From Phycisphaerales bacterium (GTDB lineage Bacteria > Planctomycetota > Phycisphaerae > Phycisphaerales > UBA1924), in the NCBI GenBank assembly GCA_029260375.1, contig JAJDDI010000009.1, positions 34,275-98,274 on the forward strand: 64,000 bases of DNA. Direction: 5' to 3'. Shown here one piece after another: positions 8,062 through 25,670 of the stretch. The position numbers and the translations under genes are program-made. The notes under the pieces were generated by a model, which made no database searches, was not told the origin of the DNA, and worked only from the letters and a program-made list of their open reading frames with translations. Every line of letters begins with the position of its first letter. The first letter of the stretch is position 1.

Positions 8062-8751
8062 ATGCGTACTTTGGATCGAGTCGTGCTTCTTCTGCTTGGC
8101 GTCGGTGTGCTGACGCTGGTTCTCGGCCTGCGTGCCGTCCCCGCCCAGGATTCGGGCCAGCGGCTGGCGAGTGCCGACGTGCTGACCCTCGTCGAAGATG
8201 TGCTCCGGACCGGCACGTACGCCGACCCGCGCATGGAGCTGGAGACGGAGCTCGTCGGGCAGATGCGGGACATGCAGGCCCAGCTGCAGTTCATGTCGCA
8301 GCAGCTGCAGAGCATGCAGCCTGGCGACCCGCAGGGCCAGCAGATCTACAACACCATGCAGGCCAAGCAGGCGGAGCTGCAGCAGTTCCAGCAGTCGTCG
8401 CTCGAGCGCTTCCAGCAGTTGAGCGCGGACCAGGCGAAGGAGACGTACGCGATGGTGCGGGCGGCGACGAGCGTCGTCGCGGAGCGTGAAGGGTTCTCGC
8501 ACGTCATCGCGAACCGCGCGAGCGCCGAGATCGGCGAGGCGCCGACGCTGACAGCCGTGACACAGGAGATCCTTGCCCGCCCGATGGCCGTCGGTTCGGA
8601 TCGAAACGATCTGACGCCGATGGTCCGGGCGGAGCTGGGCCTGCCCGAGCCGGGGAGCGAGCCCGAGGCGAACGCCGAGGACGCGGTCAACGACGCGGCG
8701 CAGGACGCCGGCGAGGCCGCGGATCAGGCAACGGAACCGCCGGCGCCGTGA
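8062..8751 (+). CDS. OmpH/Skp-like periplasmic chaperone
   Basis: Start moved to ATG 8062 (MRTLDRVVLLLLGVGVLTLVLG signal/TM). Gln-rich coiled-coil core (QMRDMQAQLQFMSQQLQ...QAELQQFQQ) typical of OmpH. Confidence 0.6.
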   Translation: MRTLDRVVLLLLGVGVLTLVLGLRAVPAQDSGQRLASADVLTLVEDVLRTGTYADPRMELETELVGQMRDMQAQLQFMSQQLQSMQPGDPQGQQIYNTMQAKQAELQQFQQSSLERFQQLSADQAKETYAMVRAATSVVAEREGFSHVIANRASAEIGEAPTLTAVTQEILARPMAVGSDRNDLTPMVRAELGLPEPGSEPEANAEDAVNDAAQDAGEAADQATEPPAP

Positions 8752-9431
8752 TCTCGCAGGCGTGCGTTGATCGCGCGGGCGAGCTCGTCCTTGACCTGAT
8801 CCATGCTCGGCGCCGCGTCGCCTAGGACGCGGTCGAGGCTGGTGACCGCGCGCCCGTGCAGGCCGCATGGCACGATCAGGTCGAAGTGCGAGAGGTCCGG
8901 GCGGACGTTGATCGCGAGCCCGTGCATGGTGACCCACCGCCGGACGCGGATGCCGATGGCGCAGATCTTGGCGTTGGCGCCCCCGTGCTCGACCCAGACG
9001 CCGGTGGCTTCGGGGTCGCGTGAGCCCTGCACCCCGAAGGCGCCCAGGGCGTCGATGACGCTGGCCTCGAGCAGACGGACGTGATCGTGGATACCCAGGC
9101 GGAGGCGCTTGAGGTCGAGGATGGGGTAGGCGACGAGCTGGCCCGGGCCGTGGTAGGTCACGTCCCCGCCCCGGTTGGTCTGGGTCAGGGCGACGCCCCG
9201 ATGGGCCAGGAGTTCTTCTGATGCCAGCACGTGCTCCGCGGCCGCGGGTCGGCGGGTGAGCGTGATGACCGGGTCGTGCTCGACGAAGAGCAGCTCGCCC
9301 GGGGAGGAGCCGGGCTCGTCGCGTCGGGCGAGGACTGCCTCGTTGAGCGCGGCCTGCCGCTCGTAGGCCCGGGCGTAGTCCATGCGTCCCAGGTCGGTCA
9401 CCCTGATGATCGGATCGTCCACGGGGCGCAC
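8724..9431 (-). CDS. lipB: Octanoyltransferase (lipoyl(octanoyl) transferase) LipB
   Basis: LLFVEHDPVITLTRR, NRGGDVTYHGPGQLVAYPILDL, KICAIGIRVRRWVTMHGLAINV. Confidence 0.9.
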   Translation of the reverse strand: MRPVDDPIIRVTDLGRMDYARAYERQAALNEAVLARRDEPGSSPGELLFVEHDPVITLTRRPAAAEHVLASEELLAHRGVALTQTNRGGDVTYHGPGQLVAYPILDLKRLRLGIHDHVRLLEASVIDALGAFGVQGSRDPEATGVWVEHGGANAKICAIGIRVRRWVTMHGLAINVRPDLSHFDLIVPCGLHGRAVTSLDRVLGDAAPSMDQVKDELARAINARLRDHGAGGSVA

Positions 9432-9454
9432 TGTACGCCCCCTACAGTTGCGGC

Positions 9455-10294
9455 ATGACGATGACCTCGACCAGTGTTCACCCCACCGCCATCGTGTCCG
9501 ACGAGGCCCAGCTGGGCGACGGCGTGGAGATCGGCGCGTACTGCATCGTCCGCGGACCGGTCACTCTGGGCGATGGCGTCCGCCTGATCTCGCACGTGTG
9601 CATCGATGGGCCGGGCCAGATCGGGGCGGGGACCATCGTCCACCCGTTCGTGAGGCTCGGGGGATCGGCGCAGGACCGGAAGATTGGGCCCGAGGACGTG
9701 ACCGCCGGCTTCGTCGTGGGTGAGGCGGGCATCATCCGCGAGTACGCGACCGTCCACGCGGCGACCAACGATCACACGCCCACGAGCGTGGGCGACCGGA
9801 TCTTCATGATGTGCGCCAGCCACGTCGGGCACGACGCGCGGGTGGGCAACGACGTGAACCTGATCAACGGGTGCCTGCTGGCGGGGCACGTCGTCGTTGA
9901 GGACAACGTCAACATCTCGGGCAACGCCGCGGTGCATCAGCACTGTCACATCGGGCGCCTGGGCATGGTCTCGGGAGGCGTGGTGCTCACGATGGACATG
10001 CTCCCGTTCTGCACGGCAATCCTGCGCAACCGGATCGCGGGCGTGAACCTCGTGGGGATGCGACGCGCCGGGATGGACCGGCTCGAAATCCAGGCGGTCC
10101 GCGACGCGTACCGGGACCTGGTCCGGACGGGGATGGCCAGGCAGGATCTCATCGCGGAGCTGCGGGCACGCGGCGAGGGTCGGTTCCCGGCGCTGCTGGA
10201 AATGGCGAGCTTCGCCGAGAACGCCAAGCGAGGACTCGCGCCCGGGCTGCGAACCGCCAGGCGTGACTCCTTCGAAGGCGACATGCTGGCGTGA
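9455..10294 (+). CDS. lpxA: Acyl-ACP--UDP-N-acetylglucosamine O-acyltransferase LpxA
   Basis: Left-handed beta-helix hexapeptide repeats (VHPTAIVSDEAQLGDGVEIGAYCIVRGPVTLGDGV...) and an LpxA-type C-terminal helical domain. Confidence 0.9.
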   Translation: MTMTSTSVHPTAIVSDEAQLGDGVEIGAYCIVRGPVTLGDGVRLISHVCIDGPGQIGAGTIVHPFVRLGGSAQDRKIGPEDVTAGFVVGEAGIIREYATVHAATNDHTPTSVGDRIFMMCASHVGHDARVGNDVNLINGCLLAGHVVVEDNVNISGNAAVHQHCHIGRLGMVSGGVVLTMDMLPFCTAILRNRIAGVNLVGMRRAGMDRLEIQAVRDAYRDLVRTGMARQDLIAELRARGEGRFPALLEMASFAENAKRGLAPGLRTARRDSFEGDMLA

Positions 10295-11232
10295 GCGAAA
10301 GGATCGATGGACCGATGCCCACACCGGCCTTCCCGACGCTGACCGACGCGACCCCGGCGGCGCTGTGCGTGCTCGCGTCGGGCTCGTCGGGCAACTGCTC
10401 CGTGCTGCTGCGCCGGAGCGAGCGGGGCGTACGGGGCACGCTGATCGATGCGGGGCTGAGCCCGAGGCGGACGCGCCGCCTGCTGGCCCAACGCGGGACG
10501 CCGCTGCGGAGCATCGACGAGATTCTGCTCACCCACCTCGACTCGGACCACTTCCACGCGGGCTGGATGCGCGAGCTGGACCGGGGTGTGGGCGACCTGC
10601 GCGCAACACTCCTGGTGCACGAGCGCCACGCGAAGCGCCTGGCCTCGATCGCGACGCCCCCGCAGCGAACCGAGTACTTCGACGACACGATCCATATCAG
10701 CGGGGCCCGCGTCGATGCGGCTCTGCTGTCGCACGATCAGCTCGGCGTCGCCGCGTTCAGGTTTGACTTTGACGGAGGCGAGAACGCCTCGCTCGGGTTC
10801 GCGACGGACGTGGGGCGTCCGACCGACGAGCTGGTGACGCGCCTGCACGGCGTGAGCACGCTGGCGATCGAGTCGAACTATTGCCCGGTGCTGCAGCGCG
10901 AATCGCCCCGCCCGGGGTTTCTCAAGGCGAGGATCATGGGCGGCTCGGGGCACCTGAGCAACGAGCAGTGCGCCAGAACCGTCAAACGGATCGTGCCACG
11001 GGAGCGGGTCGTGCTGCTGCACCTTTCGCGCCAGTGCAACACGCCGGAGCGGGCCTCTGCGGCGCATCTGGGCGAGCACTACGAGACGACGGTCACGGAC
11101 CAGCACCGATCGACCGGGTGGATCCCGATCTCGGCAGCGCTCGGCGCGGCGCCCCCGCTTCCGGCGCCCTTGATGCTCGAGACGCTCCCGCTGTTCGGGG
11201 AGCGCCAGCGGAGCGACCGATCGTGCCGGTGA
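10291..11232 (+). CDS. MBL-fold metallo-hydrolase
   Basis: GTG start overlapping the lpxA stop (GTGA). LASGSSGNCSVLL...LIDAGL...LLTHLDSDHF (HxDxDH-type metal motif). Confidence 0.7.
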   Translation: MSERIDGPMPTPAFPTLTDATPAALCVLASGSSGNCSVLLRRSERGVRGTLIDAGLSPRRTRRLLAQRGTPLRSIDEILLTHLDSDHFHAGWMRELDRGVGDLRATLLVHERHAKRLASIATPPQRTEYFDDTIHISGARVDAALLSHDQLGVAAFRFDFDGGENASLGFATDVGRPTDELVTRLHGVSTLAIESNYCPVLQRESPRPGFLKARIMGGSGHLSNEQCARTVKRIVPRERVVLLHLSRQCNTPERASAAHLGEHYETTVTDQHRSTGWIPISAALGAAPPLPAPLMLETLPLFGERQRSDRSCR

Positions 11233-12047
11233 CCCGCCCGAGCCTGGCGCCGACGCACGGGGGCGACCGGCGACCGGCGGCGCGCCTGCGCATCGATTCC
11301 GCCCAGCGCGCTGTCGTCTCCTGGCTCGCCTCGGTGTTCCGCGTGCGCCAGACCTTGCGGGTTGATGATGTCCGGTACAAGGAACGCACGCGCACGCCGC
11401 TGCGACGTTCCCTGGGCAGGCACGGCGAGGGGGAGAAGATCTACGACGTCCGCTTCCCGGGTCCGGACGCTCCGGCGCCGATGGCCATCCACGCGACGCG
11501 CCACCGGGTCTTTGCGGATCTGGCCCCTTGCTCGCGGGCGGAGTCCATCGGCGTGCTCCGCCCGCTTATCCGCCCCGGCTGGCGCGTGTTCGAGGTCGGG
11601 TGCGCCACGGGCGGGGGATCCGCCCTGCTGAGCGAACTGGTCGGACCCTCGGGCGGGGTCGTGAGTGTGGGGACCGACCGGGAGTCGATCCGGTACGCGA
11701 GGCGTCGGTACCGGAGGGCGAATCTCGGGTTCGAGCTGGGCGGGATCGAGACGCTCGACGGCGAGACCGACGGCGCCTTCGACGCCGTGATCGCCCACCG
11801 GGCGCCCGAGCCCGGCACGGGCGGCGAGGACGCGGACCTGAAGGAACTCTGGCGCGTCGTCGCCCCGGGGGGCCTGCTGGCCTGCCGAAGCACGCAATCC
11901 GGCGACACGAGCGCCCCCGTCGAGACCACCGAGATGCGGGTCCGGACGACGTGCAGGGACGCGGAGATCGACCACGCCCGGTCCCCGGACCGGGAGATCA
12001 CGTGGGTCCTGGCGAGGCGCCCGAGCGATCGCTCCGACCCAGATTGA
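11223..12047 (+). CDS. Class I SAM-dependent methyltransferase
   Basis: Motif I VFEVGCATGGGSALL and post-I VVSVGTD. The start is approximate (GTG 11223). The longer ORF from 10881 overlaps the MBL gene in another frame. Confidence 0.6.
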   Translation: MPVTRPSLAPTHGGDRRPAARLRIDSAQRAVVSWLASVFRVRQTLRVDDVRYKERTRTPLRRSLGRHGEGEKIYDVRFPGPDAPAPMAIHATRHRVFADLAPCSRAESIGVLRPLIRPGWRVFEVGCATGGGSALLSELVGPSGGVVSVGTDRESIRYARRRYRRANLGFELGGIETLDGETDGAFDAVIAHRAPEPGTGGEDADLKELWRVVAPGGLLACRSTQSGDTSAPVETTEMRVRTTCRDAEIDHARSPDREITWVLARRPSDRSDPD

Positions 12048-12051
12048 TCGG

Positions 12052-12522
12052 ATGGCCCGTTCCCGGGGCGATACCCTCTGGGTGATGGAGAACATAGAAA
12101 CCACACTCAACGACCCGGCTCGCTTCGCGGCGCACACCACGGGCGACCCGGCCAAAACCCGCGCCTTCGCGATCGACGCGGCGCTCTCGCTCGTCGACGA
12201 CAAGTGCGAGGACGTGCTCGTGCTCGACGTGAGCAAGACCTCGCCCGTCACGGACTACATCATCATCGGCACGGGCACGTCCGAACGCCAGATGAACGCG
12301 GCCCTGCGAAACGCCAGCGACATCGGCGAGGAGCGCGGCTTCCCCCGGTACCGCAAGCACATCGACGAGCGCGGCGCCTGGCAGCTGGCGGACTTTGTCG
12401 ATGTGGTCGTCCACCTCTTCGAGCCGAACATGCGGGCGCACTACGACCTTGAGATGCTCTGGGGTGAGGCGCCGCGGGTGGACCTGCCCGACCGCGCCCC
12501 TCCCGGGACCGGCGCGTCGTGA
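12052..12522 (+). CDS. rsfS: Ribosome silencing factor RsfS (iojap-like)
   Basis: DVLVLDVSKTSPVTDYIIIGTGTSERQ...WQLADFVDVVVHLFEPNMRAHYDLEMLW. Confidence 0.85.
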   Translation: MARSRGDTLWVMENIETTLNDPARFAAHTTGDPAKTRAFAIDAALSLVDDKCEDVLVLDVSKTSPVTDYIIIGTGTSERQMNAALRNASDIGEERGFPRYRKHIDERGAWQLADFVDVVVHLFEPNMRAHYDLEMLWGEAPRVDLPDRAPPGTGAS

Positions 12523-13676
12523 GTTCGGTGGTCCGGGTCGAGCTGGGCGAGCGTGCCTATGACGTGCGCGTTGGCGCGGGAGCACTCAGCTCGCTGGCGT
12601 CACACCTTGCTCAGGTTCTGGGCTCGGCGCCCCAGCGGGCGCTGCTCGTGATCGACGAGGGCATCCCCGCGCCGGCTGTCGAGCGGGTGGTCCTTCACCT
12701 TGAGGGCGCCGGGATCACGCTGACGCAGGCCCGTGTGAACCCGACCGAGCGTGTGAAGTCGCTCGAGACATACGAGCGACTGCTGGCCTCGGCGGCCGAG
12801 GCGCGTCTTGAACGCAACGACCCCGTGATCGCCCTGGGCGGCGGGATCGTGGGCGATCTGGCGGGGTTTGTCGCCGCGACGTACCGGCGCGGCGTTCCCG
12901 TGATCCAGTGCCCCAGCACCCTGCTCTCGATGGTGGACGCCTCCGTCGGGGGCAAGACGGGCGTGAACCTCTCGGCCAGCCTCGGCGGGCGTCAACGCCT
13001 GCTCAAGAACTTCGTCGGGGCGTTCCACCAGCCCCGACTCGTTGTTGCCGACACGGACATGCTCGCGTCGCTTGAGCCGCGCGTCTTCCGTGCCGGGCTG
13101 GGCGAGTGCGTAAAGCATGCGATGATCGCCGGCTCCGAGGACCTGCTGGCGTGGACCGAGTCCAGCGCCGACGCGATCCTCGCCCACGACCCCGACGCGC
13201 TGGCCCAGCTCGTCGGGAAGAGCGTGACACTCAAGGCGCGGGTGGTCGCGGGAGACGAGCGGGAGACCGCCGCGGACGGGGGGCGGGCGCTGCTCAACCT
13301 GGGGCACACCTTCGCGCACGCGATCGAGACGCTCGGGGGCGTGCGCAAGCGGGGATCGGACGATCCCGGTCTTCAGCACGGCGAGGCGGTCTCGATCGGG
13401 CTCGTCGCCGCCCTCGCGGCGGGCGAGAAGCTCGCCATGGTCGATGGCTCGCTGACACGCCGGGTCGTGGCGCTGCTGGATCGTCTGGGCCTGCCCACGG
13501 GCGCCCAGGGCCTGCCGCCAGCGGCGGAACTGATGGGCGCGATGATCGACGACAAGAAGACCGTCGGCGGGCGCCTGCGCCTGATCGTGCCCACCGGCGT
13601 CGGTCAGGCCCGGGTCGTGCAAGACCCCGAGCCGGGCGCGGTCCGCGCCGGGCTGGCGGCGATCGGCGCCCCCTGA
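12519..13676 (+). CDS. aroB: 3-dehydroquinate synthase AroB
   Basis: GGGIVGDLAGFVAATYRRGVPVIQCPSTLLSMVDASVGGKTGVN...LNLGHTFAHAIE. GTGA overlap with rsfS. Confidence 0.9.
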   Translation: MSSVVRVELGERAYDVRVGAGALSSLASHLAQVLGSAPQRALLVIDEGIPAPAVERVVLHLEGAGITLTQARVNPTERVKSLETYERLLASAAEARLERNDPVIALGGGIVGDLAGFVAATYRRGVPVIQCPSTLLSMVDASVGGKTGVNLSASLGGRQRLLKNFVGAFHQPRLVVADTDMLASLEPRVFRAGLGECVKHAMIAGSEDLLAWTESSADAILAHDPDALAQLVGKSVTLKARVVAGDERETAADGGRALLNLGHTFAHAIETLGGVRKRGSDDPGLQHGEAVSIGLVAALAAGEKLAMVDGSLTRRVVALLDRLGLPTGAQGLPPAAELMGAMIDDKKTVGGRLRLIVPTGVGQARVVQDPEPGAVRAGLAAIGAP

Positions 13677-13838
13677 TCGGGCCTGACGGGCGCGCCCAAC
13701 CACCGGGCAAAGCGGGTTCTGGAGCGATCGAGCGGGGCGGCCCGATAAGGCCTCAAGCCGTCGGTTCGCCATCGCCCGCCGCGATCGGACCCGGCGGCGA
13801 TCACGTTCAGTGCCCGACGGGGCAGCGAGGCCCGGCCC

Positions 13839-15347
13839 GTGCGGACGATCGCGATCATCAACCAGAAGGGCGGTTGCGGGAAGACCACCAGCGCGATCAA
13901 TCTCGCGGCGGTCTTCGCCCGGCGCGGGTTCCGGACGCTGCTGGTCGACCTTGACCCTCAGTCGCACTGTGCCGCGGGCCTGGGCGTTCCCGAGGAACAG
14001 ATCGAGCGTGACGTGGCCGACGCGCTGCTGGCGCCGTCCGACGCCCGCCTCGACCGGGGCCAGCTGCTCTGGCGGGTGACACGGGGGCTGGATCTGCTTC
14101 CCAGCCGGATGCGGCTGGCGGGGCTCGAGTCGAGCCGGGGCGGTCTGTCCGACGCGCCCGACAAGGATCACCGCCTCGCGTCGGTGATCGACCGGCTGAG
14201 CCGAGCCCACACCGAGACGGGCGAGAGCGACGAGCCCGAGCGGGTGTTTGATATCTGCCTGATCGACTGCCCGCCCTCGATCGGGCTGCTGACCTACAAC
14301 GCGCTGGTCGCGGCCCGCGAGCTGATCGTGCCGGTCGAGACGAGCTATTTCGCGCTCAAGGGCGCCGAGAAGCAGGTCAAAACCATGCGTTCGATCGGTC
14401 GGCGCCTGGGCGTGCGGAACCGGGCGCGACTGCTCCCGACCCTGCACGACGCCTCGGTCCCGATCTCCCGCGACCTGCTCGACGAGATGCGGTCCAAGTT
14501 CGGGGGCCTGCTGATCCCCACGATCATCCGCGCCGACGCGGCCCTGCGCGAGGCCGCGAGCGTGGGACGCCCCGTGATCGACCACGCACCGGACTCAACG
14601 GGAGCCGAGGACTACACGTCGCTGTGCGAGTGGCTCGAGGAGCACGCGCGGATCGACAAGACCGAGTTCCACGAGGGCGACGACGAGTTGATCCGTCCGA
14701 TCGAACGCCCGGCGAACGTGACCGTCATGCCCCATGCCCAGCAGGCTGTGCTCAGCCGGACCGAGCCCGCCGGGCCACCGCCCTCCCGCCTGGACGAGCT
14801 CACAGCCCGGGTGCGTGAGATGAAGCGGGCCGGCGAGACGAGTCCGCTCAGCGTCTCGCAACGCCTCGATGCGCTTCGAACGGTCGCGAGCGTGAACGCG
14901 GCGCCTACTCGCCCCCCCGCTGAATCCTCATTCGCGGCCATGGCTGCCACGCCCGCCCCGGTCACGCCCCTGACACTGGTCGAGTCCACCCCCGAGCCGG
15001 CCCGTCCGCTCGACGCCGGCGCCCGGGCGCTGCTGGGCTCCCGCCCGACGGCGCGGGGCGTGCTGTTCGTGCTGCCCTTGGCGCTGGGCGATCGAGTCTG
15101 CATCGCGGGCGACTTCAACGGGTGGCAGGGCGATCGGCACGAGATGCGCCGCAACCCGGACCGAGGTGTGTACGAGCTCGAGATCCCCATGAGCCCGGGC
15201 GAGTACCAGTACCGGCTCGTGATCGATGGGCGCTGGTCCGTCGATCCGTACGCGGGCGGGTGCGCCCTGAACAGCAGCGGTGAACCAAACAGCGTAGTCC
15301 GCGTCCCGGCCCGTGCCGGCGCGGAACGCAGCGAAGCGAGACACTGA
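13839..15347 (+). CDS. ParA/MinD-family ATPase with C-terminal AMPK-beta/CBM48-like glycogen-binding domain
   Basis: Deviant Walker A IINQKGGCGKTTSAINLA. C-terminal VLFVLPLALGDRVCIAGDFNGWQGDRHEMRRNPDRGVYELEIPMSPGEYQYRLVIDGRWSVDP matches the AMPK-beta GBD / isoamylase-N pattern. Confidence 0.8.
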   Translation: MRTIAIINQKGGCGKTTSAINLAAVFARRGFRTLLVDLDPQSHCAAGLGVPEEQIERDVADALLAPSDARLDRGQLLWRVTRGLDLLPSRMRLAGLESSRGGLSDAPDKDHRLASVIDRLSRAHTETGESDEPERVFDICLIDCPPSIGLLTYNALVAARELIVPVETSYFALKGAEKQVKTMRSIGRRLGVRNRARLLPTLHDASVPISRDLLDEMRSKFGGLLIPTIIRADAALREAASVGRPVIDHAPDSTGAEDYTSLCEWLEEHARIDKTEFHEGDDELIRPIERPANVTVMPHAQQAVLSRTEPAGPPPSRLDELTARVREMKRAGETSPLSVSQRLDALRTVASVNAAPTRPPAESSFAAMAATPAPVTPLTLVESTPEPARPLDAGARALLGSRPTARGVLFVLPLALGDRVCIAGDFNGWQGDRHEMRRNPDRGVYELEIPMSPGEYQYRLVIDGRWSVDPYAGGCALNSSGEPNSVVRVPARAGAERSEARH

Positions 15348-16720
15348 TGGACGGCGCCGATTACACCGAGCATTCCGAGTACCTCCCCGCGACCGCACGC
15401 CCCACGCCTGGCGATGAGTTCGACGCGCTGGCGGACCTGTTCCTGGGCGACACGCCGCTGGCGCCCACGGGCGATGCACGCGACCCCCAGCCGCGATCGA
15501 CCGGGACCGACCCCGTCCCCGTCCGGGCGCCCACGCCGCGGGGCGCGGCCGCCCGGACGCCGCGCCTCGAGGCGGTGGTCCTCGGGCACCTGCCCGTGCG
15601 CGCGTCGATATGGGTGCGTCAGTACGCGGGCTCGGTCGCCGACGCGACGCAGGCGCCGGTGGCCCTGCTGCGCGTCTCGCCCGACGCGACGACGCTCGAG
15701 CTCGTCGGCGCCGGCGTACGTCATGGCGACGAGCACACGAACATCCGCGACGCGATCGCCGACGCCCGCGGGCGCACTGCCCACTGGATTGTTCGGGTCG
15801 AGGAGACCGACGAGCCCACGCTCATCGCCCGCGACGACCTGGACGAGATCACCGTGCTGACGGGAGCGGACGAGGCGGCGGTTGTCGCGTCGTACCGCCT
15901 GATGAAGTCGCTCGCGGCGGACTGGGACCGGCGCCTTGACGAGGACGAGGGCCCGGCGCTGTGCCTGGCGATCATGGGCGCCAACAGTGAGGAAGCGCTC
16001 GTCGCGGGCGAAAAGCTCGAGCGGGCCGCCCGCGCGTTCCTGCAGCGCCCGGTCCAGGTCTCGGCCCGGGTACCGCGCATCGGCGCGGTCGGGTCCGCGG
16101 CTCTGTTCCGCGGCGAGCCCGGCGAGAGCCTGGAGACACTCTTGACACTCATCTCCGGAACAACCCCGCTGACGGCGGACGCCCCGTGCCTGCGTCTGGC
16201 CTCCGAGAAGGGCCCGCCGGCACACCCCGCGTCCACCCCCACCGCCACCCCTGCGGCGCGTCATTCGCCCGCCGACGCCCCGGCCCTGCCCGCTCGGGAG
16301 CACGCGACGGCTGCAACGCGGTCCGAGCACGCCAGGCCGGCGCCGATGAGTTCGATCATCCCGGGCCTCACGCTGCTTGAGACGCGCTGCCCGAAGGCCG
16401 GGCGTGTGGAACTGGCGACCGACGAGGCGGGGCGCCTGCACCTGATCGCGCGGTCCGGGACCGATCCGTCGCAGCCGGTTGACACGCTGATCTCGACGAG
16501 CGCCTGGGCGCGCGAGCACCTGCCCCTGCTGCTGCGGGCGGAGCCGACGCTGGCAGCGCCCAGCGCGGACCCGGCCTCCGAATCGGAACCGGTGCTGCAC
16601 CTGGTGACGACCGAGCCCAAGCTCATCCGCCCGCTGCTCGACGCGGACGTGCGGGTGCACCTGCTGACCGAGATCGAGGTCGGCGGGCAGGTCGCCAGGG
16701 TGACCACCGAGCTGAACTGA
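15347..16720 (+). CDS. Hypothetical protein coupled to the ParA-CBM gene; central region resembles a ParA/MinD fold lacking Walker A
   Basis: ATG overlaps the upstream TGA by 1 nt. The pattern LEAVVLGHLPVRASIWV...VALLRV...WIVRVEE...ITVLTGADEAAVVASYRLMKSL...LCLAIMGANSEE follows the strand/helix order of ParA-like NTPases, but there is no GKT. Confidence 0.5.
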   Translation: MDGADYTEHSEYLPATARPTPGDEFDALADLFLGDTPLAPTGDARDPQPRSTGTDPVPVRAPTPRGAAARTPRLEAVVLGHLPVRASIWVRQYAGSVADATQAPVALLRVSPDATTLELVGAGVRHGDEHTNIRDAIADARGRTAHWIVRVEETDEPTLIARDDLDEITVLTGADEAAVVASYRLMKSLAADWDRRLDEDEGPALCLAIMGANSEEALVAGEKLERAARAFLQRPVQVSARVPRIGAVGSAALFRGEPGESLETLLTLISGTTPLTADAPCLRLASEKGPPAHPASTPTATPAARHSPADAPALPAREHATAATRSEHARPAPMSSIIPGLTLLETRCPKAGRVELATDEAGRLHLIARSGTDPSQPVDTLISTSAWAREHLPLLLRAEPTLAAPSADPASESEPVLHLVTTEPKLIRPLLDADVRVHLLTEIEVGGQVARVTTELN

Positions 16721-16743
16721 TCGCACGCGGACCAAACGACAAA

Positions 16744-16768
16744 CGCCCCGGACCATCGGCCCGGGGCG
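16744..16768. terminator. Hairpin between convergent genes (possible bidirectional terminator)
   Basis: cgccccgg-9 nt-ccggggcg between the 457-aa gene (+) and clpX (-). Confidence 0.4.
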
Positions 16769-16793
16769 CTGTTGTACAAAGATGGAGCCCGAA

Positions 16794-18224
16794 TCAGGCG
16801 GAGTTGGCCCGCTTGACGCGGAGCTGCTCGAGCTTGGGCTTGTTCCGCACGGCGGCGGCGTCGATCACGTACTCGACGCCCTCGTTGTCCAGGTCGGGCA
16901 GGTCGAACGTCAGGTTGAGCATGATCTCTTCCATCACAGCCCGCAGCGCCCGGGCGCCGGTGGCCCGCTTGGCCGCGAGGGCGGCGATCTCGTCGAGCGC
17001 GTCGTCCGTAAAGGTCAGCTTCGCACCCTCGAGCCCGAACATGTGCTGATACTGACGGATGAGCGCGTTCTTGGGCTCGGTGAGGATCTTGACCAGCGCC
17101 GTGTTGGGCAGCGGCATCAGGGGCGTGATGACGGGCAGGCGCCCGACGAGCTCGGGGATCATCCCGTACTCGACCACGTCCTCGTTGGTGACCTGCGCGA
17201 GGAGTTCTTCGCGCTTGATCTGCTGGACCTTCTCGCCCGCGCCGTCCGTGGAGAGGCCCGCGAAGCCGATGCGGGTCTGCCCGACGCGCCTGCGGATGAT
17301 CTCCTCGAGCCCGACGAACGTGCCGCCGCAGATGAACAGAACGTTGCGGGTGTCGAACTGGATGTACTGCTGCTCGGGGTGCTTACGCCCGCCCTGGGGG
17401 GGGACATTGGCGACCGTGCCCTCGAGCATCTTGAGCAGGGACTGCTGCACGCCCTCGCCCGAGACATCACGGGTGATCGAGACGTTGGAGGAGGTCTTGC
17501 CGACCTTGTCCACCTCGTCGATGTAGATAATGCCGCGCTGTGCGGCCTCGACATCGAAGTCCGCGGCCTGGAGCAGCTTGAGCAGCAGGTTCTCGACGTC
17601 CTCGCCGACGTACCCCGCCTCGGTGAGCGTGGTCGCGTCTCCGATGGCAAACGGGACCTTGAGCATGCGGGCCATGGTGCGGGCGAGCAGCGTCTTGCCC
17701 GAGCCCGTGGGACCGATGAGCAGAATGTTGGACTTGTCGAGCTCGATGTTGTTCGCGTCGTCGCTCTCGGCGTGGAGCAGACGCTTGTAGTGCGTGTGCA
17801 CGGCGACCGAGAGCGACCGCTTGGCCAGCTCCTGGCCGATGACGTATTCGCTCATGAACTCGACGATCTCACGCGGAGACGGGATCTCCTGAAGGGCGCT
17901 GGAGATCGAGCTCACCCGCCGGCGTTCCTGCTTGAAGATGTTCTGGCAGAGATCGACGCAGTTGGAGCAGATGTAGACCTCGCTGGGTCCTTCGACCATG
18001 GGTCCGACCTCGCGGGAGGTCTTGCCGCAGAACGAGCAGGTGGTGACCTTACGTCCACGGAAGCCGCTGCCCCCGCCGCCGGAGCCCGAGGCGCCTCCGC
18101 CCCCGGAATCACCGCCGTCGGAACCGCCCGAACCGGAATCACCGGAATCGGATCCAGTGTCACGCCCCGCGGCAACCGGCTCAGCTCCCACGTTCTCGTC
18201 CTGCCAACTCTTCGACATACTCAC
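16794..18224 (-). CDS. clpX: ATP-dependent Clp protease ATP-binding subunit ClpX, with a Gly/Ser/Asp-rich N-terminal extension
   Basis: Zinc finger CSFCGK...[10 protein letters not shown]. Walker [18 protein letters not shown]-like loop and conserved C-terminal region. Confidence 0.95.
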
Positions 18225-18473
18225 CTCGAAGTTTCCGCGAGCCGTTGTGGCGCCCGCAAGCTATCGACCGACTCCTGGCCGGGCTCGACGCCCACACCCA
18301 GACCCGTCGAATCCGGTGTTGGCACGAACCACCCATGCCACCGAGCCGGTCGATCTCACCCTGAGCCTACCGCCCGTCTTGCCCCTCAACCATGTCTTGT
18401 GGATCACGATCCGCACACTGACCCATCCCAGGCCCCTTCAGTCGGCATAGACCCCCCAGATGCCCCACATGTC

Positions 18474-18932
18474 TCAGCCCGCCGGGTCCTCACCGGGCTT
18501 GGGCGGGGCGCTTTCTTCAGACGACTCGGGCTCAGGGCCCGGCTCATGGCGCCCCGGCAGTCGCTCACCCGTCAGGTCAAACCCGGGCTTGGCGGCGACG
18601 GACCCGTCCGGGGCGACCGGGCCCCGCTCGGCGTTGGGTCTGGGCGGGGGCGCCTTGCCCGCCGCCCGGGCGGCGATGGATGCGCGGGCGGAGTCGTACT
18701 CCGCCCGGCTGATCTCGCCCCGCTCGCGCATGGCCCGGAGCTGGTCGAGCATCGACCCTGGCGAGACGGAGACGTCCGAGGCGTTGAACAGGCGCCGGCG
18801 CATCGCGAGCACGACCACGCCGAACACCAGCGAGGCGATGATCAGGGCGCCGACCCAGAGCCACAGCTCGGTCGGCGGAGACTGACGGCTCTGCGCCAGC
18901 ACCAGCCCATGTTTGATCCAGAGTTCCTGCAC
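18474..18932 (-). CDS. Small membrane protein with SHOCT-like motif
   Basis: TM LWLWVGALIIASLVFGVVVLA. LDQLRAMRERGEISRAEYDSAR resembles the SHOCT short C-terminal domain. Pro/Glu-rich tail. Confidence 0.5.
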   Translation of the reverse strand: MQELWIKHGLVLAQSRQSPPTELWLWVGALIIASLVFGVVVLAMRRRLFNASDVSVSPGSMLDQLRAMRERGEISRAEYDSARASIAARAAGKAPPPRPNAERGPVAPDGSVAAKPGFDLTGERLPGRHEPGPEPESSEESAPPKPGEDPAG

Positions 18933-18985
18933 GCCGGGGTGATTCTACCGCACCCCGATTGCCCGTCTCGACCCGTCGCGCCAGG

Positions 18986-19732
18986 CTAGAGGTTGTTCGA
19001 GGCGATCGCCTCGCGCAGGGGCGTGAGCAGCGCGGGCAGCACCCGCTCATCGACCAGCTCCTGCCCTCGCTTGGACAGGCGGTCGAACCGGTCGGGCAGC
19101 TCGCGCAGGTCCGAGACGGGGTCGTGCTGGCGGAGCGTGAGGTAGACGCTGATGGGCTCGTCCCGCCGCTCAACCTCGCGGGCGCCCGCCTGCGATCGGG
19201 TCTTGACCTCGAAGTGCGCCTCGGTCTCGGAGCCGAGCCCCAGCGTGAGGCCGATGAGCGGCTGGCAATCCACCGCGACGGCGCCCGGCACGTCCACCAG
19301 CGAGGCCATCGGCGACTGGCCCACGAGCGCCTGGGCCACGATCGCGTCGTGATTCCCGCCCGCGGCCAGATCGAACCCGTACAACAGCTCCACGAACTCC
19401 AGGTCGAGCGGGCTGATGCTCAGGTAGTACGGCGTGACGTCGAGCACGCACCGGTGGAGCCCGTAGGCCTCCTCCTCGTTCTGCGGGTTGACCACGCCCG
19501 AGCGGATGCTGTTGGACCGGATGGCCAGCCAGCGGTGCGGGACGCTGTCCTGCGGGCTCTCGAGCGCCAGCTCGTCCTTGTACCGCTTGAACGAGCCCAT
19601 CTCGGGGAACTCGCGCCGGACGCGCTCGAACAGGTCGAGCACGGTCTCTCGGGATCGCGGAAGATCGAGCTTCACGCTCATCTTCTGGTTCACATAGAAG
19701 TCGGTACACAAGACCTTGTAGCTCGATGGCAT
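18986..19732 (-). CDS. Hypothetical protein (248 aa)
   Basis: Start moved to ATG 19732 (MPSSYKVLCTDFYV...). Normal globular composition. No family recognised. Confidence 0.5.
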   Translation of the reverse strand: MPSSYKVLCTDFYVNQKMSVKLDLPRSRETVLDLFERVRREFPEMGSFKRYKDELALESPQDSVPHRWLAIRSNSIRSGVVNPQNEEEAYGLHRCVLDVTPYYLSISPLDLEFVELLYGFDLAAGGNHDAIVAQALVGQSPMASLVDVPGAVAVDCQPLIGLTLGLGSETEAHFEVKTRSQAGAREVERRDEPISVYLTLRQHDPVSDLRELPDRFDRLSKRGQELVDERVLPALLTPLREAIASNNL

Positions 19733-19840
19733 CCGTGCGCACTCCTTGCGGTCGTCGCCAGCATAGAGCCAACCCCGAACAGATCGCGGTTTCCGACGAC
19801 CTGTCCACATCAACTGACACAACGCCCGGATCGCCCGGGT

Positions 19841-21112
19841 TCAGGGGGAATCGGTCGGGGGCGCCGCGCGGAGCATCGGCTGCGGGCGGAGGTAGGTCAG
19901 GCTGCGCCAGACCCACTCGGCCGGGCCGAAGCGGAAGGCCCTGAGCCAGAGCAGACTGAACACGATGTTCACGGTCCACACGCCGGCGACGACGAGCCAG
20001 AGCTGCGGGTACTGGACGCGCCCGAAGAGCCCGAGGGCGTACCCGTAGAAGAGGGTGGTGCAGAGGATCGTTTGGAGTAGGTAGTTGCTCAGCGCCATGC
20101 GCCCGACACTGGCCAGGGCCGCAGTGACCGGGCGGAGCCAGCCGCGCCGCACCAGCAGGATCAGCACCGAGGCGTAGCCAAGGGCGGTCGGGATGCCCAC
20201 GAGCTGGCCAGCGCCCAAGAAGATGAACCCGGGCAACTCGACCGCTTGATCAAGCAGCGCCAGGAACGCGATCGTGAGTGTGAGCCCGACGGTCAGGCCC
20301 AGAGCCCCCATCGCCAGGTAGAACCGGTCGCTGCGTTCACCCGTGAGAACGCCCGTCTTGGTGAGCGCCATGCCGAGGGTCATCAGCCCGGTGACGGAGA
20401 AGCCAAAGCCCATGGGTAGGAGAAAGATGTATGTGAACAGGAGCTGGCCAGCACGAATCTTGAGGCCGTCCAGGTACGACCCCGTGTACGCGGCGAGCTC
20501 ACCCGGGTAATCGCCGAGCATCGCTTCGCCGCCCTGAAAGACCATGCCCAGGAGCATGAACCCGGTGAGCAGACCCGTCCCGAGCAGGTACAGCCCAGCC
20601 CCGAGGCCGAACTGCCACCCCGGGCGGAGACGCCGGACCCACCAGACGATGCCGAGACCCGCGATGGCGTACCAGACGAGGATGTCGCCGTACCACAGCC
20701 CGAACGCGTGCAACAGCCCGATGCCCAGCAGCCAGGCGCAACGCGTGTACCACAGCCCGGCGCCCTTGCTCAGCCTGGGACGCCCAGACGCGTCGTCCTG
20801 CTTGCGATCGAACTTCCGGGCGTACATCAGCACGCCGGCGCCGAAGAGCAGCGAGAACAAGAACATCATCTTCCCGTGGAAGACAATCTGGACGATGCGG
20901 TGCCCAAGCTCGTTGGCCCGCTCGTGCGGCTCGGCGCCCGAGGTCAGCTCGAGGGTAAACCCCATGATCTCCGGCGCGAACTGCGTGGAGCTGGGCCAGG
21001 CGAAAGCGAGGATGTTGGGGCCGAGGATGCCCAGCAGGGCAAAGCCCCGGATGACATCGAGCGTCACGATGCGATCGGGGGCCGCAACGGGCGCTGGTGT
21101 CGTATCCATCAT
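19841..21112 (-). CDS. DUF418-family polytopic membrane protein (YeiB-like)
   Basis: [17 protein letters not shown]... at the N-terminus, many TM segments, and C-terminal [27 protein letters not shown]. Confidence 0.7.
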
Positions 21113-21390
21113 TCCCCCTCGCGTCTGATCTCAAGCCCGGATCCCGCCAACTCTTCGCAGGCAAGGGCGGTGCGTGTCACGTCCGCGATATTATCCATCA
21201 GGCGGGTCTCGACCGCCTGCGTGAATCGAGTGAGTTCATCCCGCTCGCCCTGGGCCTCGAGCGTGACCGAGGCGTCTGGCTCGTTGCGGACCCAGCCGCT
21301 GATGTCGTACCCACGGGCGATGGAGCGGCACGTCGCCCGGAAGCCGACGCCCTGGACTCTTCCTCTATAGCTCATCCGCCAACGCTCCAT
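21109..21390 (-). CDS. acyP: Acylphosphatase
   Basis: [40 protein letters not shown]. 4-nt overlap with the downstream DUF418 gene. Confidence 0.8.
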
Positions 21391-21802
21391 GATGGGGTTG
21401 TATCCGTTCCTACGGAGGGGCGTGGGAGGCGTTTCAGGACCGAGATTCAGACCCGCCCCACTTCCCGGACGCCCCAGGGGCGCGGATGTGCGGTTCGTGC
21501 GGGCTGATCGGGCAGATCGGTTGATTCATCCGGCCCACGTGCTAGGGTTTCTCCAGACTGACAGGCGTCGCTCAGCGAGCGGATCACGGGGCGGTTTCAG
21601 GCCGCACACCCGGGCGATCAACACACTGATGAGCGAACGACCCGCAGCGACACTCCGGTTTCTTCACCGTGCTTCTCGTGTCGGTTGAGGGTCGGCCCCC
21701 CTGGGATGGGCCGTTGAGACATACTCGCTTCAGCATGCCAACGGGCGAGACAGACATCACGCGTCGGGGCGACGGGTCCTCACAGGGCTTGTTTGTCATC
21801 GC

Positions 21803-23716
21803 GTGCGCATCGGGAAGGACGTGTCGGGGACGATGAGCTTCGGCCAGGGACAGTTCGGCCAGGACGGCCCGGATGATCGCCAGCGCGTTCGTGACGCGTC
21901 GGACATCGTCTCTGTTATCGGCGAGCATCTCTCGCTCAAGGCCAAGGGTCGCGAGTACGCCTGCCTCTGCCCCTTCCACGACGACCACAACCCGTCGATG
22001 AGCGTCGTGCCCCACAAGCAGATCTTCCACTGCTTCGTCTGCGGCGCCGGGGGGGACGTGTTCACGTTCGTCCAGCGGTATCACAGCATGGAGTTCCGCG
22101 AGGCGCTCGAGTTCCTGGGCGAGCGGGCCGGGATCGAGCTGACGCGGCGCAAGCCCCAGGGCCAGAGCGGTTCGGGCCAGAGCGAGATCAGCCGCCAGGA
22201 GCTCATCGAGGCCAACCGGGTCGCGACGGGCTTCTTCCGGGCCATCCTCACCCACCCCGAGCACGGCGTGCTGGCGAGGCAGGTTGTGGAGCGGCGATCG
22301 CTCAGCCCCGAGATGATCGAGGCGTTCGCCATCGGCGCCAGCGTCGATCGCTGGGACGGGCTGCTGCAGGTCGTCCGGGGCAAGGGCCTCAGCGAAGCCC
22401 ACTTCCTGGGCGCCGGGCTCATCAAGCCCAAGGACAACGGCGACGCCTACGACGCGCTGCGCAACCGCCTCATCTTCCCCATCCACGAGCACCCGACCGG
22501 ACGCGTCATCGCCTTTGGCGCCCGTCGCCTCAACGACGAGGACGAGCCCAAGTACCTCAACAGCCCCGAGACGCCCGTCTTCAACAAGTCCAAGACCCTC
22601 TTCGGCCTGCACCAGGCGGCCCGCTCCATCCAGAAGGAGGGGCTCGCGATCATCGTCGAGGGGTACACCGACGTCATCGCCTGCCACCAGGCGGGGATCA
22701 CGAACGTCGTGGGCACGCTGGGCACGGCCCTGACGACCCAGCACGCCGCGGTGCTGCGCCGGCTGTGCGACGCGGTGGTGCTGCTGTTCGACGCGGACGA
22801 CGCGGGGCAGCGGGCGGCCGACCGGGCGCTGGAGGTGCTCTTCAGCGAGGAGATCGACATCCGCGTCGCGCGGGGCGAGGGCGACGCGAAGGACCCGGAC
22901 GAACTGCTTCGATCAGAAGGTGGCGTCGAGACGTTCACCGCGATGGTCAATGACGCCCAGGACCTGCTCGATTTCCGGTTCGGGCGGCTGCGGGCCAGGC
23001 TGGCGGGCGCGGGGATCGCCGAGACGTCGCGCGTGCTGGGCGAGGAGATGGGGCGGCTCATCGAGCTGGGTCTTGATCGACTTCGCCCGCTGCGTCGGAA
23101 GCTGATCCTCCGCAAGCTCGCGCAGATCGCGGGCGTGGACGAGGAGACCGTCCGCGAGGCGATCCCGGGCGGGCGGCGGATGGCTCGCCCCGAGACCCAG
23201 ATCGAGACGAAGGACACGCTCGGGCGTTCGCTGGGCGCCCGTGAGTCGGTGCTGGGCAGCGTGCTGTGTGATCCGAAGGTGTGGATGGCGATCGGGCACG
23301 ACGAGCGGGACCTACTCGCAGCACCATTGTTTGAGAATGAAGCCCTCCGGGCGGTCGCCGACGCGGTGCACCTGCTCGACGAGGACGGGCGTCGCCCGTC
23401 GCTGGCGGACGTGCTGGGCGAGCTTGAGACGGGCGAGGCGCAGTCCGCGGCGGTCGAGCTTGAGCGCATCGTCAGTGTTCAGACGGGGGGCAAGGGCGAG
23501 CGCTTCAACGACTACTGGCGCCAGTGTCTGGAGCGACTAAAAATCCAGGAGATGTCGCGCCCCAGTGGCGCGTCGGAACCCGAAGGACCGGACAGCGGTA
23601 GCACCCCCGCGGGCGGGGTCTCGAACGACTCGGACGATCTCGCGGAGCTGCTCGCCCTCGGGCGGCTCCATCAGCAACACGGAAAGAACCCTGCGGCCAA
23701 GCTGCTCGGGGACTGA
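21803..23716 (+). CDS. dnaG: DNA primase DnaG
   Basis: Zinc-binding CLCPFHDDHNPSMSV...FHCFVCGAGGDVFTFV. TOPRIM EGYTDVIACHQAG...LLFDADDAGQRAA. Confidence 0.95.
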   Translation: MRIGKDVSGTMSFGQGQFGQDGPDDRQRVRDASDIVSVIGEHLSLKAKGREYACLCPFHDDHNPSMSVVPHKQIFHCFVCGAGGDVFTFVQRYHSMEFREALEFLGERAGIELTRRKPQGQSGSGQSEISRQELIEANRVATGFFRAILTHPEHGVLARQVVERRSLSPEMIEAFAIGASVDRWDGLLQVVRGKGLSEAHFLGAGLIKPKDNGDAYDALRNRLIFPIHEHPTGRVIAFGARRLNDEDEPKYLNSPETPVFNKSKTLFGLHQAARSIQKEGLAIIVEGYTDVIACHQAGITNVVGTLGTALTTQHAAVLRRLCDAVVLLFDADDAGQRAADRALEVLFSEEIDIRVARGEGDAKDPDELLRSEGGVETFTAMVNDAQDLLDFRFGRLRARLAGAGIAETSRVLGEEMGRLIELGLDRLRPLRRKLILRKLAQIAGVDEETVREAIPGGRRMARPETQIETKDTLGRSLGARESVLGSVLCDPKVWMAIGHDERDLLAAPLFENEALRAVADAVHLLDEDGRRPSLADVLGELETGEAQSAAVELERIVSVQTGGKGERFNDYWRQCLERLKIQEMSRPSGASEPEGPDSGSTPAGGVSNDSDDLAELLALGRLHQQHGKNPAAKLLGD

Positions 23717-23777
23717 ATCAGGCCAATGATCTCCCCGGCTGCCCGTTCTGGGCCAGCGCGGGACCACCAAGGACTCG

Positions 23778-25670
<1,893 letters not shown>

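Follow-up and report, generated by a model that had tools for sequence, protein, structure and literature searches.

A conserved operon of the Phycisphaerales pairs a ParA-type ATPase that carries a predicted glycogen-binding module with a partner of predicted ParA-like fold: a candidate system for organising glycogen granules

The stretch of 64,000 nucleotides analysed here (the window) contains two adjacent genes, A and B, which together make up an operon that is retained throughout the planctomycete order Phycisphaerales. A encodes a ParA/Soj-like ATPase with a flexible linker and a C-terminal CBM48 module, and B encodes a conserved partner protein. The domain content of the two proteins suggests a function in the positioning of granules, and we give roughly even chances to the proposal that they form a self-contained spatial-organisation system of the ParA/MinD type that is directed at cytoplasmic alpha-glucan (glycogen) particles. 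We infer from the same content that A binds glycogen and is active as an ATPase, that it interacts with B, and what the matrix of the system might be. The author of an earlier note on this DNA knew of no described system of this kind, and no published description of one was found in the searchable literature.

Gene A (13839..15347, forward strand, from the ORF call and Pfam) starts with GTG and specifies a product of 502 aa, which begins with MRTIAIINQKGGCGKTT in the ORF list for the window. Gene B (15347..16720, forward strand, from the ORF call) starts with ATG and specifies a protein of 457 aa. The sequence at the junction of the two genes, CACTGATGG, contains the pentanucleotide TGATG (15345..15349, forward strand), in which the TGA stop of A and the ATG of B share 1 nt; that the stop and the ATG overlap had been pointed out in the earlier note. 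This overlap suggests that the translation of A and B is coupled. Overlaps of the form ATGA occur at 11 other loci, bringing the genomes with a stop/start overlap (TGATG or ATGA) to 12, and most of the remaining loci have spacers of 3-180 nt. Downstream of B, between B and the convergent gene clpX, a GC-rich hairpin (16742..16770; a 13-bp stem with 10 GC pairs) is likely to be the terminator that closes the operon, on evidence that is weak in that the count of such hairpins does not exceed the expectation from shuffled sequence.

The ATPase core of A (residues 1-~276; 13839..14666, forward strand), identified by invariant motif residues and by its relatives in the PDB, matches the Pfam models AAA_31 (residues 1-189, E 3e-37, 128.6 bits against a cut-off of 27) and CbiA (residues 4-246, E 1e-17, 64.5 bits against a cut-off of 25.4). 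The deviant Walker A motif, K10-G-G-C-G-K15-T16 with its signature lysine, is invariant in 30/30 family sequences, as are the aspartates D37/D39 of Walker A' and D143 of Walker B. The proposed canonical ParA core is thus borne out by both the motif and the models, and the ATPase site is intact. The best solved relatives of the core are Soj of Thermus (1wcv, 1e-37), ParA of M. xanthus (8ray, 9e-34) and Soj of H. pylori; the McdA structures 6non and 6noo are weak sequence matches (E ~1e-6) in the N-terminal region only. A falls below the NCBIfam equivalog cut-offs for ParA_partition (91.2 vs 180), BcsQ (88.9 vs 157.85) and RepA (80.3 vs 348.45), though BcsQ models match it over the full core (E 2.6e-10 and 3.6e-25), and its matches in PADLOC and PHROG are to generic ParA families only.

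One position in this core has a bearing on the surface that A might use. The alignment column of S206 in the window protein, which we take to correspond to R189 of B. subtilis Soj, is occupied by S/T/E/N/A/D in 29/30 family members and by Arg in 1/30. For this arginine of Soj, Hester and Lutkenhaus reportedly described in 2007 a role in nonspecific DNA binding. The equivalent mutant of M. xanthus ParA is R238E, and mutation of this arginine abolishes nonspecific DNA binding (PMC12462528). Since A lacks the canonical nucleoid-binding Arg, the standard mechanism of a Brownian ratchet on the nucleoid may not apply to it.

Behind the core, A continues with the long Pro/Ala-rich linker that had been pointed out before (residues 276-405; 14664..15053, forward strand), as judged by its composition (30% Ala+Pro, made up of 16% Ala and 14% Pro) and by its variable length in the family (89-229 aa). 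A short conserved motif, S-R-x-x-E-L-x-x-R-A-R with an invariant R317, lies inside the linker at residues 316-328 (14784-14822 of the window). The linker leads to the module of the CBM48/AMPK-beta type (residues ~408-490; 15060..15308, forward strand), which is recognised by Pfam and by sequence matches in the PDB that include the AMPK beta1 CBM, GlgB and pullulanase. Both AMPK1_CBM (residues 417-490, 36.4 bits against a cut-off of 26.8) and CBM_48 (residues 408-472, 36.2 bits against 22.4) exceed their curated thresholds, so that the carbohydrate-binding pattern suspected in the C-terminus is upheld, and AMPK1_CBM (PF16561) is carried by all of the best 120 homologs of A. The sugar contacts of AMPK beta1, which in the AMPK CBM-cyclodextrin structure are W100, K126, W133, L146 and N150, are largely kept in the family: W100 aligns with W429 (30/30), K126 with K/R459 (30/30), W133 with W466 (30/30) and N150 with N484 (26/30), while L146 aligns with position 480, which is hydrophobic in 28/30 sequences and Ser in the window protein. 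This conservation suggests that the module binds glycogen or another alpha-glucan. CBM48-like modules can also serve in protein interaction or regulation, as in AMPK, and this counts against the glycogen reading. Signal peptides and transmembrane segments are absent from both A and B, and the ligand must therefore be cytoplasmic.

B defines a large family (268 homologs in 90%-identity clusters, and 1,312 representatives at 50% identity with E <= 1e-3) for which there is no Pfam or NCBIfam model. It has no match in Pfam, NCBIfam, PADLOC or PHROG, so that no enzymatic or known regulatory domain and no defence or phage family can be assigned to it, and no sequence match in the PDB. The earlier note considered the middle of this protein to be a ParA/MinD fold that lacks the P-loop lysine. 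Structure prediction indicates that B is a real, folded protein, and the segment in question (15569-16052, residues 75-236) lies inside an alpha/beta domain (residues ~70-270; 15554..16156, forward strand; AF2 and Foldseek) modelled at a pLDDT >90. In Foldseek searches of the PDB the best match to this domain is FlhG (4rz2, E 1.2e-5, probability 1.0, TM by target 0.41-0.45); the top matches are FlhG, FleN, ParA2, MinD, HypB, NifH and Get3, and nearly all of the top 50 are SIMIBI-class NTPases. The Walker A P-loop GK[ST] is absent from B, and its place is occupied by an invariant loop, G80-H-L-P-V-R-A-(S/T/G). A comparison of the B and A profiles by hhalign gave a probability of 0.07, and the relation to ParA is not detectable by sequence. 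The description of B as ParA-like thus holds for the predicted fold, without a P-loop, and fails for the sequence.

Two conserved modules of B had been overlooked. The first, E-(Y/F/H)-D-A-L-A-D-L-F-L-G-D (residues 24-35; 15416..15451, forward strand), is an acidic and amphipathic motif near the N-terminus, found by alignment; it is near-invariant in 32 sequences, a helix is predicted at residues 27-33, and the flanks are disordered Pro-rich linkers. The second is a conserved C-terminal alpha/beta domain (residues ~333-457; 16343..16717, forward strand), predicted by AF2 of the domain alone at a pLDDT of 91. Its best Foldseek match is the C-terminal domain of EndoMS/NucS (E 0.045, TM 0.50), a weak likeness to PD-(D/E)xK nucleases, and its conserved residues E355, D359, H365, E399, H418 and D432 include no obvious canonical D...(D/E)xK motif.

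The conservation of the pair was followed in 79 genomes of different species, with ~17 kb of DNA per genome. The ParA-CBM gene is located directly upstream of B in 77/77 testable loci, as expected if the two genes stay neighbours in related genomes. Both proteins recur in dozens of species at identities of 28-88%, which places their features far beyond chance. Most of the genomes share the gene order from lipB to rpoD, with A-B inside this housekeeping block near clpX, dnaG and rpoD, and adjacency by itself is therefore weak evidence there. In the divergent loci L061, L066, L075 and L077 all of the flanking genes differ, and the A-B pair is intact, with order and strand unchanged. The long block of housekeeping synteny around the pair gives no hint to its function. 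Neither the window nor the annotated neighbourhoods show a glycogen-metabolism gene linked to the pair, no plasmid or phage context was seen, and no division genes are consistently linked to it. No ParB-like or second Soj-like gene was found in the window, a Spo0J probe had no match in either the window or the 79 loci, and no parS-like site with <=2 mismatches exists in the 1.4 Mb of window and loci, in agreement with the earlier statement that the window holds neither parB, a parS-like palindrome nor a plasmid context.

A cycle that would accommodate these features can be proposed for A and B. Dimerisation in the ParA family depends on ATP, and ATP-driven dimerisation of A would pair two CBM48 modules and might thereby create high-avidity binding to the multivalent surfaces of glycogen, from which the ADP-bound or monomeric form would be released. 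This switch would parallel that of MinD, in which dimerisation turns on membrane binding through a C-terminal helix. B would dock on the A dimer through the E(Y/F)DAL peptide at its N-terminus, which is near-invariant, acidic and amphipathic, and would tune the hydrolysis of ATP, a role modelled on the N-terminal peptides of ParB, MinE and McdB and on the EIDAL peptide of FliM/FliY, which acts on the MinD-like FlhG. In FliM the EIDAL motif is required for the binding of FlhG and also suffices for it, and FliM raises the ATPase activity of FlhG (bioRxiv 10.1101/2022.04.21.489128). The likeness of B to EIDAL extends over a motif of five residues and might be coincidental. The P-loop-less ParA-fold domain of B, together with its C-terminal domain, may bring about oligomerisation or provide a second point of attachment. 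Such a cycle would spread glycogen granules through the cell, restrict their clustering and assist in their partition at cell division, possibly with the nucleoid as a matrix as well.

Among known systems, McdA/McdB resembles A/B in that the gene for a ParA-family ATPase adjoins that of a partner from a small family with disordered regions, in that the dedicated, adjacent partner is conserved as a pair (here in every testable locus), and in the presumed role of distributing a cytoplasmic inclusion other than DNA. In McdA/McdB, however, it is the adaptor, McdB, that attaches to the cargo, and McdA that attaches to the nucleoid, whereas in A/B the predicted cargo module, CBM48, is fused to the ATPase; A/B also departs from McdA/McdB in that the nucleoid-binding Arg is not conserved in A and the partner has the fold of a ParA-like pseudo-ATPase. 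A simple McdAB-like picture is weakened by the state of this Arg, the likeness of B to ParA by fold only, the two additional modules of B and the absence of linked glycogen genes. MinD, like A, is a deviant Walker A ATPase with a C-terminal appendage for binding a surface (predicted in the case of A). ATP-dependent dimerisation switches on the avidity of the MinD appendage, and a peptide of the partner MinE triggers hydrolysis and release, which is the logic proposed here for the CBM of A and the motif of B. The proposed surface is glycogen rather than the membrane, the appendage is a folded CBM of ~90 aa on a tether of ~130 aa rather than a helix of ~10 aa, and B bears no relation to MinE.

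The central domain of B finds its closest structural matches in FlhG and FleN, and the E-(Y/F)-D-A-L of B resembles the EIDAL peptide of FliM/FliY that binds FlhG; FlhG, however, has ATPase activity, bears a membrane-targeting helix and functions in flagellar patterning, whereas B has no P-loop and no flagellar context. The chromosomal ParABS system (Soj/Spo0J) is the closest to A in the sequence of the ATPase core, and differs from A/B in that A has no ParB/CTPase partner, no parS was found in the window and loci, the equivalent of Soj R189 is Ser, and A carries the extra linker and CBM48. The module of A belongs to the same family, with the same Trp/Lys/Trp/Asn sugar-contact positions, as those of AMPK beta, GlgB, pullulanase and the SEX4/LSF glucan phosphatases. 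The known fusions of CBM48 are to kinases, glycoside hydrolases/transferases and phosphatases, whereas in A the module is joined to a ParA-type ATPase, and the searchable literature yielded no report of CBM48 fused to a ParA/MinD ATPase. BcsQ, like A, is of the ParA/MinD family and, as proposed for A, is dedicated to a polysaccharide system, in its case that of cellulose secretion; bcs genes do not surround A, and a CBM is absent from BcsQ.

Other readings of the pair deserve to be weighed. One that we hold to be improbable is a system for partition of the chromosome or its origin, in which A would be a chromosomal Soj/ParA orthologue with an acquired CBM, and B would replace ParB, with an N-terminal peptide that binds ParA and with central and C-terminal domains that bind DNA or a centromere. 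The affinity of the A core to chromosomal Soj/ParA structures is consistent with such a system, as are the order-wide occurrence of the pair in the housekeeping block by clpX, dnaG and rpoD, the weak likeness of the C-terminal domain of B to a DNA-binding PD-(D/E)xK nuclease domain, and the layout of B (N-terminal peptide, linker, folded domain, linker, C-terminal domain), which resembles that of ParB. The window and loci showed neither a ParB nor a second Soj, an absence near the pair that says little because only ~17 kb per genome was covered. Partition is made less likely by Ser206 in the column of the DNA-binding Arg, which only one of the 30 family members retains, by the lack of parS-like sites in the window and loci and by the failure of B to match any ParB/CTPase or HTH model. 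The motif of B is acidic, whereas the ParA-binding peptide of ParB is hydrophobic with a central Arg/Lys (PMC12462528). Partition would also leave the strict conservation of the sugar-contact residues unexplained.

To a regulator or scaffold of glycogen metabolism we likewise assign a low probability. A would then be an ATP/ADP-sensing switch that sits on glycogen by way of its CBM, in the manner of AMPK beta, and with B would recruit or gate the enzymes that synthesise or degrade glycogen according to the energy state. The AMPK-beta type of the CBM and the ATP-dependent dimerisation of the ParA family would suit this arrangement, and so would the lack of support for a nucleoid matrix and the precedent of ParA/MinD proteins, such as BcsQ (whose models A matches), that already act as assembly or regulatory factors of polysaccharide machines. 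However, a gene for a glycogen enzyme adjoins the pair in none of the examined neighbourhoods, and B contains no domain of an enzymatic or known regulatory kind. This reading overlaps with that of granule organisation in placing A on glycogen, which makes the two hard to separate by sequence alone.

To our knowledge, the Planctomycetes, including the Phycisphaerae that divide by binary fission, have no FtsZ, and their division machinery is unknown. This background, the order-wide presence of the pair among housekeeping genes and the closeness of the B fold to FlhG and FleN, which are polar-landmark regulators, would agree with a MinD-like organiser of the division site or cell pole whose CBM-like module binds a protein or another glycan. 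We consider such an organiser distinctly unlikely, as the conserved CBM residues are exactly those that contact alpha-glucan, no membrane-targeting helix or transmembrane segment is present in A or B, and no division genes are consistently linked, the PBP and LysM genes at 710-4330 being 10 kb distant from the pair. Least credible of all is that B is a fast-evolving, lineage-specific protein without functional connection to A, adjacent to it merely by inherited synteny of the lipB-rpoD region, given the retention of order and strand in the four loci with different flanks, the stop/start overlaps in a dozen genomes, and the invariant motifs and two high-confidence domains of B.

The ParA/MinD ATPases are the general means by which bacteria position their components, namely chromosomes, plasmids, carboxysomes, chemoreceptor arrays, flagella and division sites. 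In the members known to us, positional information comes from either the nucleoid or the membrane, and a separate adaptor provides the link to the cargo. The most likely role of A/B, again at about even chances, is the organisation of glycogen granules, a cargo not reported for ParA-type ATPases in the searchable literature. A far bolder extension, which we regard as a long shot, is that glycogen is a third kind of matrix for these ATPases beside the nucleoid and the membrane, and that the Phycisphaerales, which lack FtsZ, use the order-wide pair of active ParA and pseudo-ParA as a core machine of their cell cycle, with polysaccharide granules as landmarks for chromosome partition or the choice of the division site. 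If the ATPase itself carries a glycogen-binding module, granules of storage polysaccharide would join the inclusions that bacteria actively organise, and the wiring would be a different one: the module for cargo or surface would lie in cis, on the ATPase, and the partner would be a pseudo-ATPase. With the A/B operon, the largely unknown means by which bacteria set how many glycogen granules they contain, how these are spaced and how they are passed on become directly testable in cultured Phycisphaerales.

Gene A (13839..15347, forward strand) encodes a protein of 502 amino acids whose N-terminus is MRTIAIINQKGGCGKTT, and gene B (15347..16720, forward strand) encodes one of 457 amino acids; the coordinates of both ORFs match exactly those described in the earlier note. 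By motif and HMM criteria, the A protein is a member of the ParA/MinD family. Its residues 1-246 match AAA_31 (E 3e-37) and CbiA (1e-17) in Pfam, the NCBIfam matches to ParA, BcsQ and RepA are all sub-threshold, and the closest solved structures are those of the chromosomal Soj/ParA proteins, namely Thermus 1wcv (1e-37), M. xanthus ParA 8ray and H. pylori Soj. Because the deviant Walker A motif K10 G G C G K15 T, the residues D37/D39 and the Walker B residue D143 do not vary among 30 aligned members of the family, the ATPase site is judged to be intact, and the A protein would be expected to have ATPase activity. Residues 276-405 contain 30% Ala+Pro and correspond to a segment of 89-229 aa across the family, a composition and variability in length that suggest a flexible tether. 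One conserved short motif, S-R-x-x-E-L-x-x-R-A-R (residues 316-328, 14784-14822; R317 invariant), stands amid this otherwise variable Ala/Pro-rich stretch and may serve in interaction or autoregulation. A promoter scan, of a kind ill-suited to the phylum and its GC content, found no sigma-70-like site upstream of A.

The carbohydrate-binding C-terminus that had been proposed for A is borne out by the Pfam scores over residues 408-490, which exceed the cut-offs for both AMPK1_CBM (36.4 versus 26.8 bits) and CBM_48 (36.2 versus 22.4 bits). NCBIfam returns GlgB matches over the same end of the protein, and the module, which by its sequence is a CBM48/AMPK1_CBM member, aligns with the AMPK beta1 CBM (1z0n) and with the CBM48 of GlgB and pullulanase. 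We take the carbohydrate contacts in the AMPK CBM-cyclodextrin structure to be W100, K126, W133, L146 and N150. The counterparts of the first three in A (W429, K/R459 and W466) are each present in 30/30 family members and that of N150 (N484) in 26/30, and position 480, which corresponds to L146, is hydrophobic in 28/30 and Ser in the window protein. Signal peptides and membrane-spanning segments are absent from both A and B, and the ligand should therefore be cytoplasmic; with such a module, glycogen is the obvious candidate.

The most likely reading, we infer, is that A and B constitute an ATP-switched, glycogen-directed ParA/MinD system. A regulator or scaffold of glycogen metabolism, that is, an AMPK-like energy switch seated on glycogen, is compatible with all of the observations as well and diverges from the preferred reading in output alone. 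A division or pole organiser is possible in the Phycisphaerales, a lineage without FtsZ, but such a role would leave the conservation of the sugar contacts in A unexplained.

The B protein has no match in Pfam, NCBIfam or PDB sequences, and none in PADLOC or PHROGs, on which ground a defence-system or phage origin was rejected. Its family is a large one: when 1.84 billion representatives were searched with a profile, 1,312 clusters passed E <= 1e-3 and 807 passed E <= 1e-30. An alignment of 32 homologs and an AlphaFold model (mean pLDDT 77.5) divide B into three conserved modules between Pro/Ala-rich disordered linkers. The first is a near-invariant, acidic and amphipathic N-terminal motif, E-(Y/F/H)-D-A-L-A-D-L-F-L-G-D (residues 24-35, 15416-15451). 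The second is the central domain (residues ~70-270, pLDDT >90), whose Foldseek matches in the PDB are nearly all MinD/ParA/SIMIBI NTPases, the best being FlhG 4rz2 (E 1.2e-5, probability 1.0, TM 0.41-0.45 by target) and others being FleN, V. cholerae ParA2, MinD, HypB, NifH and Get3. The position of the P-loop between strand 1 and helix 1 is occupied by an invariant G80-H-L-P-V-R-A, and GK[ST] is absent; the predicted structure thus agrees with the earlier suggestion that B has a ParA/MinD fold lacking a P-loop, and B would be a pseudo-ATPase. Homology to ParA at the sequence level was rejected, since hhalign detected no similarity between the B profile and the ParA profile of A (probability 0.07) and the Pfam, NCBIfam and PDB sequence searches were empty; the resemblance is therefore one of fold alone, and B is outside every described family. 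The third module is the C-terminal domain (residues ~333-457, pLDDT 91 when folded alone), for which the structural matches are marginal only, to the EndoMS/NucS PD-(D/E)xK nuclease domain (E 0.045, TM 0.50), and too slight to assign it a fold.

The Soj-like core of A, together with the order-wide distribution and housekeeping location of the pair, would suit a chromosome partition system with B in place of ParB, a reading that the following results make less likely. A has S206 where chromosomal ParAs have their DNA-binding arginine, and Arg is found there in 1/30 family sequences; the residue aligned with it in an approximate B. subtilis Soj sequence is R189, the loss of which abolishes nonspecific DNA binding. 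The M. xanthus ParA mutant R238E is of the same class (PMC12462528). B carries no ParB or HTH signal. Searches of the window and of 1.3 Mb from related loci, with approximate sequences of B. subtilis Soj and Spo0J as the protein probes, yielded neither a canonical ParB nor a second ParA nor parS; by these searches the lack of parB and parS remarked upon earlier was confirmed within the window. A does not, then, qualify as part of a canonical chromosomal ParABS system, and the conserved sugar contacts also argue against partition.

A scan with B-derived patterns of one genome per GTDB species yielded 79 loci, nearly all labelled Phycisphaerales, Phycisphaeraceae or simply Planctomycetota. Directly upstream of B and on the same strand, 77 of the 79 have a ParA core and CBM segment (tblastn) and the other 2 end at a contig edge, as expected if A and B are conserved neighbours, which the idea in the earlier note requires. 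In the window the stop codon of A and the ATG of B have one base in common (CAC-TGA-TGG); ATGA overlaps occur in 11 loci, and the spacing in the rest is mostly 3-180 nt. The pair lies in an unusually long housekeeping block (8724-25670; lipB-lpxA-MBL-methyltransferase-rsfS-aroB-[A-B]-clpX...DUF418-HAD-acylphosphatase-dnaG-rpoD) that is kept in most Phycisphaerales genomes (loci L001-L081). In the most divergent loci from other species (L061, L066, L075 and L077) all of the flanking genes differ and A-B alone is retained; of the computational results, this one speaks most strongly for a joint function of the two. Inherited synteny as the sole cause of the adjacency is contradicted by these loci and by the overlaps of stop and start codons.

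The neighbours themselves give no functional clue, the conserved flanks being housekeeping genes and those of the divergent loci mutually unrelated, and no glg genes were seen in the window or in the annotated neighbourhoods of the pair. B and clpX converge, and a GC-rich hairpin of 13 bp (16742-16770) that separates their 3' ends is probably a terminator for both, in a scan whose hairpin count is not above shuffle expectation. Two reverse-strand ORFs of 661 and 714 aa (12600-14585 and 14612-16756) overlap A and B and were dismissed as genes; they are artefacts of the high GC content (about 69-70% in the window). A DSP and a CBM occur together in glucan phosphatases such as laforin and SEX4. 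A dual-specificity-phosphatase-like gene lies divergent from and immediately upstream of A in locus L066 (5601-6266, reverse strand), and the window encodes a fusion of a DSP-PTPase with an M28 peptidase ~15 kb from A-B (31192-33048, reverse strand); by analogy, these may reflect a faint tie to glucan metabolism, or coincidence. Elsewhere in the window are peptidoglycan genes of this FtsZ-less lineage (710-4330; a class B penicillin-binding protein with PBP dimerisation and transpeptidase domains, then a LysM-domain protein), a Bat/aerotolerance-type operon (44871-52631; MoxR AAA ATPase, DUF58, VWA/BatA, VWA, DUF4175-like and BatD), and large ORFs with no Pfam match at E <= 1e-3 (27750-30311, 36769-37878, 39518-41287 and 46774-47673; one of 853 aa). 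At 57950-61978 a type IIG restriction-modification methylase of 946 aa, similar to Eco57I/MmeI, adjoins a DUF4915 protein, and the two may make up a small insertion, of defence or mobile type, at the window edge.

In its proposed function, the A/B pair comes closest to the positioning of cargo by McdAB-type systems and to the surface switching of the MinDE type. It would differ from these in that A itself carries, in cis, the module for the surface or cargo, and in having a putative pseudo-ATPase as the partner. Searches of the PMC/bioRxiv literature, which takes in few subscription journals, turned up neither a ParA-CBM48 fusion nor a glycogen-directed ParA nor the B family. In the glycogen-directed system that we favour, ATP-driven dimerisation of A would pair two CBM48 modules into a high-avidity hold on the multivalent glycogen surface, and ATP hydrolysis would free A from it, in parallel with the C-terminal membrane helix of MinD. 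B would be the cognate regulator of A. Partner peptides of ParA-family ATPases are usually N-terminal, and the short linear motif at the N-terminus of B is a likely docking and stimulating peptide. The ParA-binding peptide of ParB is hydrophobic with a central Arg/Lys (PMC12462528), and the acidic motif of B therefore differs from it in type. The nearest look-alike is the EIDAL motif of FliM/FliY, which is necessary and sufficient for binding to the MinD-like FlhG, the ATPase activity of which is increased by FliM (bioRxiv 10.1101/2022.04.21.489128). FlhG is also the top fold match of B, and the likeness of E-(Y/F/H)-D-A-L to EIDAL is, by analogy, a lead. The putative pseudo-ATPase domain of B might cap an A monomer, mimic one, or oligomerise, and its C-terminal domain might dimerise or attach elsewhere. 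The expected output of such a cycle would be control over the distribution and inheritance of glycogen granules.
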